A stretch of 64,000 bases of DNA, taken from NCBI GenBank assembly GCA_963766715.1, contig CAVYBH010000012.1:608001-672000 (forward strand), written 5' to 3'. Each line of letters opens with the position of its first letter. Position 1 is the stretch's first letter. Origin of the DNA: an uncultured delta proteobacterium (GTDB lineage: Bacteria > Myxococcota > Myxococcia > Myxococcales > Anaeromyxobacteraceae). Shown here in pieces: positions 53,208 through 53,601 of the stretch. The notes beneath the pieces are model-generated. The model searched no databases. It saw only the letters and a list, made by a program, of their open reading frames with translations, and was not told the DNA's origin. The position numbers and the translations under genes were made by a program.

Positions 53208-53601
53208 ATGAAGAAGCTTCTCCTCCTGCTGTCCCTCGCCCTGCTCCCGGTCTCGGCGAAGGCGAGCGAGCCGCTTCCAGACGGCCACGATGGACCAGGT
53301 CTCGGCGTGGATCACCGCCCGGGACGCGATCGTCTACGACGTGAACCCGGACGAGGTGTACGAGAAGAACCACCTGCCGGGCGCCAGGTTCCTCACCGGC
53401 AAGGCCTGGACGAGCACCCTGCCGGAGGCGAAGGCGGCGCGCCTGGTCTTCTACTGCTCGAACCCCAAGTGAATGGCCAGCCACTCGGCCGCCCGTGAGG
53501 CGGCCAAGCTCGGATACACGAACGTGTGGGTGATGCCGGACGGCATCCAGGGCTGGCTCAAGGCCGGCAAGCCCATCGAGTCGGGCGCCCCGCGCGGCTA
53601 G
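53208..53601 (+). CDS. Exported rhodanese-domain protein, probable selenoprotein (TGA 53470-53472); apparent frameshift near 53274
   Basis: Signal peptide [68 protein letters not shown] continues the rhodanese fold past the TGA. Confidence 0.85.
53479..53510 (+). promoter_or_regulatory. Putative SECIS element of the rhodanese gene
   Basis: GGCCGCC-CGTGA-GGCGGCC hairpin; loop starts 21 nt after the UGA; extra AGC/GCT pairing below. Confidence 0.7.

Follow-up and report, generated by a model that had tools for sequence, protein, structure and literature searches.

A small, probably exported rhodanese of Myxococcota with a predicted selenocysteine at a catalogued selenoprotein site

The reference point for the gene described here is the rhodanese-like protein WP_010941598.1, presumably from Geobacter sulfurreducens. 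Five rhodanese selenoprotein forms are set out in a 2026 review (PMC13188914), in keeping with the statement, in a first-pass annotation of the locus, that rhodanese-like families with selenocysteine (Sec) had been reported; Table 1 of that review names WP_010941598.1 as the representative of form 1 (motif UxxS), credits it to Zhang and Gladyshev 2005 and does not state a multi-domain architecture as defining. The deep-Sep supplement (PMC12013277) gives this protein a signal-like start, the loop FYCGGVTUVLS and a length of 423 aa; it prints nine ‘rhodanese-like’ entries of about 260–480 aa, none of them single-domain, and all those printed with a loop have the C-x4-U spacing. Two other forms have NCBIfam models, namely TsoB (NF045694; form 5, UxxxxU), a 572-position rhodanese/DsbD fusion-like protein with two Sec residues, and rhodanese_LYCAU (NF041203; form 3, CxU), a small Sec rhodanese of one domain whose N-terminus is also signal-like. 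No biochemical characterization of any C-x4-U rhodanese was found in the literature searched.

The window, that is, the whole stretch of DNA analysed (64 000 nucleotides), contains a gene that combines the form 1 loop with a single rhodanese domain. Its features, with two neighbours for context, are as follows.

52135..53134, + strand: moaA, upstream neighbour (context)
53196..53200, + strand: Shine-Dalgarno-like GGAGG, 7 nt before the ATG (sequence)
53208, + strand: start codon ATG, opening a leucine-rich N-terminus (sequence)
53208..53264, + strand: predicted signal peptide, residues 1–19, with Lys-Lys, a leucine-rich core and an A-K-A cleavage motif (by eye)
53274, + strand: extra base that throws the signal peptide out of frame (contig comparison, in-frame P0003)
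53293..53562, + strand: single rhodanese domain, PF00581 (48.7 bits against a cut-off of 22.2)
53455..53457, + strand: Cys83, the rhodanese catalytic Cys position (alignment)
53470..53472, + strand: in-frame TGA, predicted selenocysteine 88, in C-x4-U-x-x-S-H (TGA/Cys column in homologues)
53477..53512, + strand: SECIS-like element (folding, conservation, covariation)
53599..53601, + strand: true stop TAG (sequence)
53615..55007, − strand: thiC, convergent neighbour, frameshifted in the assembly (context)

The rhodanese frame, open from 53290, halts at the TGA at 53470, directly after FYCSNPK. This TGA lies in frame, five codons 3' of the rhodanese Cys, and reading through it adds 42 codons up to the TAG at 53599–53601; the read-through protein covers positions 3–101/102 of the Pfam Rhodanese profile (E 1e-12), so that the half of the fold proposed to be missing from the annotated frame is indeed found past the TGA. 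Most of the TGA homologues terminate 36–44 codons past it. The indel suspected near 53274, between signal peptide and domain, proved to be one extra base: it is absent from two of two X1 contigs and two of two X2 contigs (near-identical, from other samples), and a database protein 97% identical to this one (P0003) runs from signal to domain in one uninterrupted frame; an X4 contig lacks one base at 53273. This base is most likely an assembly error and, because of it, the gene has to be counted as 130 codons (a protein of 130 aa once the base is discounted), with Cys83 and the TGA at codon 88. Export is predicted by the hydrophobic stretch that a hydropathy check places in frame upstream in 43 of the 45 TGA loci compared below, the two others being this frameshifted copy and L079.

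Comparable single-base slips occur in moaA (near 53021) and thiC (54155–54200), and selA is also frameshifted in this assembly (G000:C15). Because the assembly is thus indel-prone, broken frames in it are weak evidence for a pseudogene. These errors would nevertheless suit a reading in which the rhodanese gene is broken and the TGA either a genuine stop codon or the product of a sequencing error, as would the fact that each of the 39 close database proteins terminates there. At 53470–53472 themselves, the differences listed against the contigs of other samples, as distinct from this genome's own reads, include no TGC, TGT or TGG, nor any other change. An RNA-run contig (X15) spans 53277–53597 with 36 differences in 321 bases; it comes from a relative and was rejected as a sign of expression of this gene.

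The conservation of the TGA speaks against a broken gene. The locus set comprised the best 30 of 196 matches in 92 genomes of the family, 11 loci from the genome collection and the best 30 of 153 hits from a phylum sample of 301 genomes, which after removal of duplicates left 54 distinct loci, the window's own included. The column aligned with the TGA is TGA in 45 of these and Cys in 8, with a single canonical rhodanese (L050) that does not have the column; the first-pass placement of Sec as the second residue of a CxxxxC-type pair is well supported. TGA occupies the column in all 30 best family matches (the window's own counted) and in 28 of the 30 best phylum matches; altogether, 44 other distinct loci combine the same TGA with a conserved downstream half, at about 43–83% identity. 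Full-length database homologues (n = 120) have Cys at the column in 114 cases, the motif pattern being unmatched in 6. Cys83, which was taken to open the catalytic loop and does align with its counterpart in the loops of 6MXV and YgaP, is invariant in 33 of 33 aligned sequences, and in alignment A1 both loop positions (83 and 88) are always Cys or Sec. The nearest titled records, at 80–83% and 64% identity, carry the names delta proteobacterium, Anaeromyxobacter or Anaeromyxobacteraceae, from which the assignment to Myxococcota derives.

The bacterial SECIS consensus is a hairpin just 3' of the TGA with a G in a small loop, and an element of this description is present here. The 7-bp hairpin reported earlier was located at 53487–53505 and is conserved: its upper stem pairs 53487–53493 with 53499–53505 around the loop CGTGA, beginning 15 nt past the TGA and presenting a G-T at 23–24 nt in the five-base loop, and a looser lower stem pairs 53477–53481 with 53508–53512. 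In 43 distinct 48-nt rows of related sequences, the upper stem is 97.7% paired, compared with at most 46% for slid controls. The covariation looked for in homologues was also found, with two-sided changes in 3 of the 7 upper-stem pairs and a score reached by none of 500 shuffles; for the whole hairpin, two-sided changes affect only 4 of 12 pairs and are as numerous in 135 of 500 shuffles, and since the rows are related by descent, all these counts overstate independence. The Arg codon in the loop is a signal independent of folding: among the 45 TGA loci it is CGT in 35, CGG in 10 and CGC in none; CGT makes up 12 of the 179 other Arg codons of the same genes and 3.3% of Arg codons genome-wide, where CGC accounts for 46.6%. 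The Cys loci form the stem less well than the TGA loci.

The genome encodes selA (in two pieces), selB, selD and tRNA-Sec (selC). Outside the family of the window, selB was detected in all 8 genomes with the TGA and in none of the two with Cys (88% and 98% complete). Since 79 of the 92 family genomes have selB, its presence in 27 of 29 TGA-bearing relatives says little; the other two are G041 (81% complete) and G045 (90% complete). The selD gene (G000:C9:55113-55955) contains one in-frame TGA, as expected for a Sec form, and elsewhere in the window (30222–30455, + strand, TGA at 30249) there is a CxxU selenoprotein of the known SelW/Rdx family (Pfam Rdx, 71.6 bits), probably the earlier of the two hidden selenoproteins counted in the first-pass annotation. 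The shared TGA with its conserved downstream half, the selected hairpin and the Cys forms where selB was not found largely refute the true-stop or sequencing-error reading, which is left highly improbable. This is a real gene truncated by gene callers, with the TGA very likely read as selenocysteine; SelB-dependent read-through and export, inferred jointly, merit high confidence.

Set beside form 1 by eye, the loop FYCSNPKUMAS matches FYCGGVTUVLS in its C-x4-U-x-x-S pattern, single Sec and PF00581 domain, and both proteins have a signal-like N-terminus. A multi-domain locus (L118) with the loop of a deep-Sep-listed member aligns with the window protein at 41% identity (86 aa, E 2e-14), and the Sec residues of the two coincide. 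In contrast to the form 1 members printed in these sources, which have at least two rhodanese repeats, in many cases with additional sequence at the N-terminus, the window protein is one domain in 130 aa, belongs to Myxococcota and retains a His after the Ser. TsoB is the best NCBIfam match (E 1.9e-12 over the loop region) and has the same five-residue spacing, but its first Sec position is TGC in the window gene, and the score of 46 compares with a cut-off of 805. Similarly, rhodanese_LYCAU is small, but its Sec lies two residues past the Cys rather than five (score 36, cut-off 115); no NCBIfam model reaches its cut-off with the window protein. GlpE, PspE and YgaP share the fold and the loop Cys, and PspE is periplasmic, as the window protein is predicted to be; unlike it, these classical single-domain sulfurtransferases have a shorter loop with an Arg and no second Cys or Sec.

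The same loop and a signal-like N-terminus being already catalogued as form 1 in these sources, this is not a new kind of protein, and the novelty that the first-pass annotation had left to be checked falls away; that the compact exported form is an added member of the catalogued family, with the form 1 site, is well supported. The 130-residue Myxococcota form itself was not found in the literature searched, which for the short form included the available text of PMC9312934, PMC1976440, PMC1794560, PMC5029168, PMC2398784 and PMC1914089; Zhang and Gladyshev 2005 or the TsoB paper of Haft and Tolstoy 2025 may mention it, and RefSeq lay outside the scope. None of the 11 A. dehalogenans selenoproteins listed in 2006 is a rhodanese, the Peng 2016 supplements give counts only, and an Atlas search with a Cys homologue yielded nothing more specific than generic rhodanese clusters.

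The gene neighbourhood identifies no partner: no sulfur or electron-donor gene was seen among the neighbours examined at family and other-family loci, which are housekeeping genes that differ from lineage to lineage. Within the family, moaA adjoins the gene in 15 of 35 loci with enough flank and thiC in 21 of 32. At four loci where the flank has neither (L020, L026, L039 and L062), a HAD-family hydrolase gene adjoins the rhodanese. None of the eight other-family TGA loci keeps moaA or thiC, and unrelated genes are found there instead. The Moco and thiamine pathways are cytoplasmic; for this reason, and given that thiC is convergent and the neighbourhood is not kept elsewhere, a role as sulfur donor to either pathway was rejected. 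In family f5, an OPT-transporter/GNAT/thioesterase neighbourhood is common to five Sec loci and both Cys loci.

As judged from sequence, it is a plausible though tentative reading that this rhodanese of 130 residues, predicted to be exported, removes sulfane sulfur (or selenium) outside the cytoplasm, with Cys83 and Sec88 working as a redox pair. Cys83 would accept the sulfane atom from a polysulfide or persulfide, as rhodanese Cys residues do; Sec88 would then attack the Cys83 persulfide, freeing sulfide and leaving a Cys-Sec bond, which a periplasmic reductant would reset. The protein would accordingly be a small reductase of persulfides and not a thiosulfate:cyanide transferase of the classical kind. 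This redox reading is favoured by the restriction of both loop positions to Cys or Sec, by a loop that is longer than in 6MXV and YgaP and has no Arg, by the fusion of the TsoB relative to a DsbD-like part, by AhpC/redoxin fusions in 2 of 100 long homologues and by an N-terminal CxxCH in the proteins of 4 of the 15 Sec domains of the G351 phylum sample, although most of the 100 long homologues show rhodanese repeats only and the neighbourhood offers no electron donor. A periplasmic selenoenzyme of Cys/Sec type that reduces polysulfide has been described with a different fold, Geobacter MccSep (PMC13510729).

With the rhodanese fold and its loop Cys in place, the read-through protein could also be an ordinary sulfurtransferase, in which Sec88 only protects or switches Cys83 in the oxidizing periplasm: in rhodaneses, the sulfur is borne by the Cys that begins a six-residue loop, and a periplasmic precedent exists in PspE (PMC9163753). 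This seems unlikely, given a loop that in the structure-sequence alignment is 1–2 residues longer than in the solved rhodaneses 6MXV and YgaP and does not have their Arg. Moreover, in several lineages it is the second Cys and not the first that has given way to Sec, an indication that the second position takes part in the chemistry.

The His four residues past the Sec is invariant in alignment A1, and together with Cys and Sec it might bind or reduce a soft metal or metalloid (Cu, Hg, As or selenite), a reading to which the third thiol of C-x4-U-x-x-C-H in 12 of the 45 TGA loci (L064-L066, L068-L074, L079 and L080) and single MauE and weak cation-efflux fusions among the 100 long homologues would also lend themselves. 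However, many multi-domain forms do not have this His, and none of the 76 neighbour frames scanned is a metal-resistance gene, so that a metal-handling function appears quite unlikely. Many Cys homologues carry the matching C-x4-C-x-x-C-H. Chemistry of the Cdc25/Acr2 CX5R type was rejected, the +6 residue being variable and, in this protein, Met.

Of 38 motif-bearing domains taken from the G351 phylum sample, 15 have a TGA in the same column, single-domain ones (L088, L096 and L112) included. On a tree of 103 columns, with the TGA/Cys column masked and L050 and motif-less domains left out, Sec and Cys rows interleave with 15 changes, at least 4 of them forced by well-supported branches; as the tree is unrooted and many forks are poorly resolved, it shows neither a single origin nor a direction. 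At L088 (G498:C22:25620-26488), a Sec paralogue adjoins a Cys paralogue and the two group on the tree, possibly as a selenium-dependent backup pair. Among multi-domain forms, L094 (G374:C318) has two C-x4-U domains and so two Sec per chain, and L102, L105, L114 and L117 have an N-terminal CxxCH, a possible c-type haem site.

No new kind of system is revealed by this gene. Its value lies in correcting an annotation error that is systematic, with every one of the close database proteins cut at the TGA and this form covered by no NCBIfam model, and in adding to a catalogued selenoprotein site a small protein that stands alone, from soil and sediment Myxococcota, in which the compact single-domain form is widespread. 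It is conceivable, if doubtful, that these proteins make up a phylum-wide, unannotated clade of minimal exported Cys-x4-Sec persulfide/polysulfide reductases, not transferases, in which Sec was gained or lost on several occasions at the resolving position. If so, the minimal clade would be the smallest handle on a selenoprotein loop that has been listed since 2005 and for which the literature searched contained no assay. The mature domain of 110 residues is an easy test object for the role of the second Cys or Sec in the rhodanese loop, and natural Sec and Cys orthologues that share a gene neighbourhood aid the comparison.
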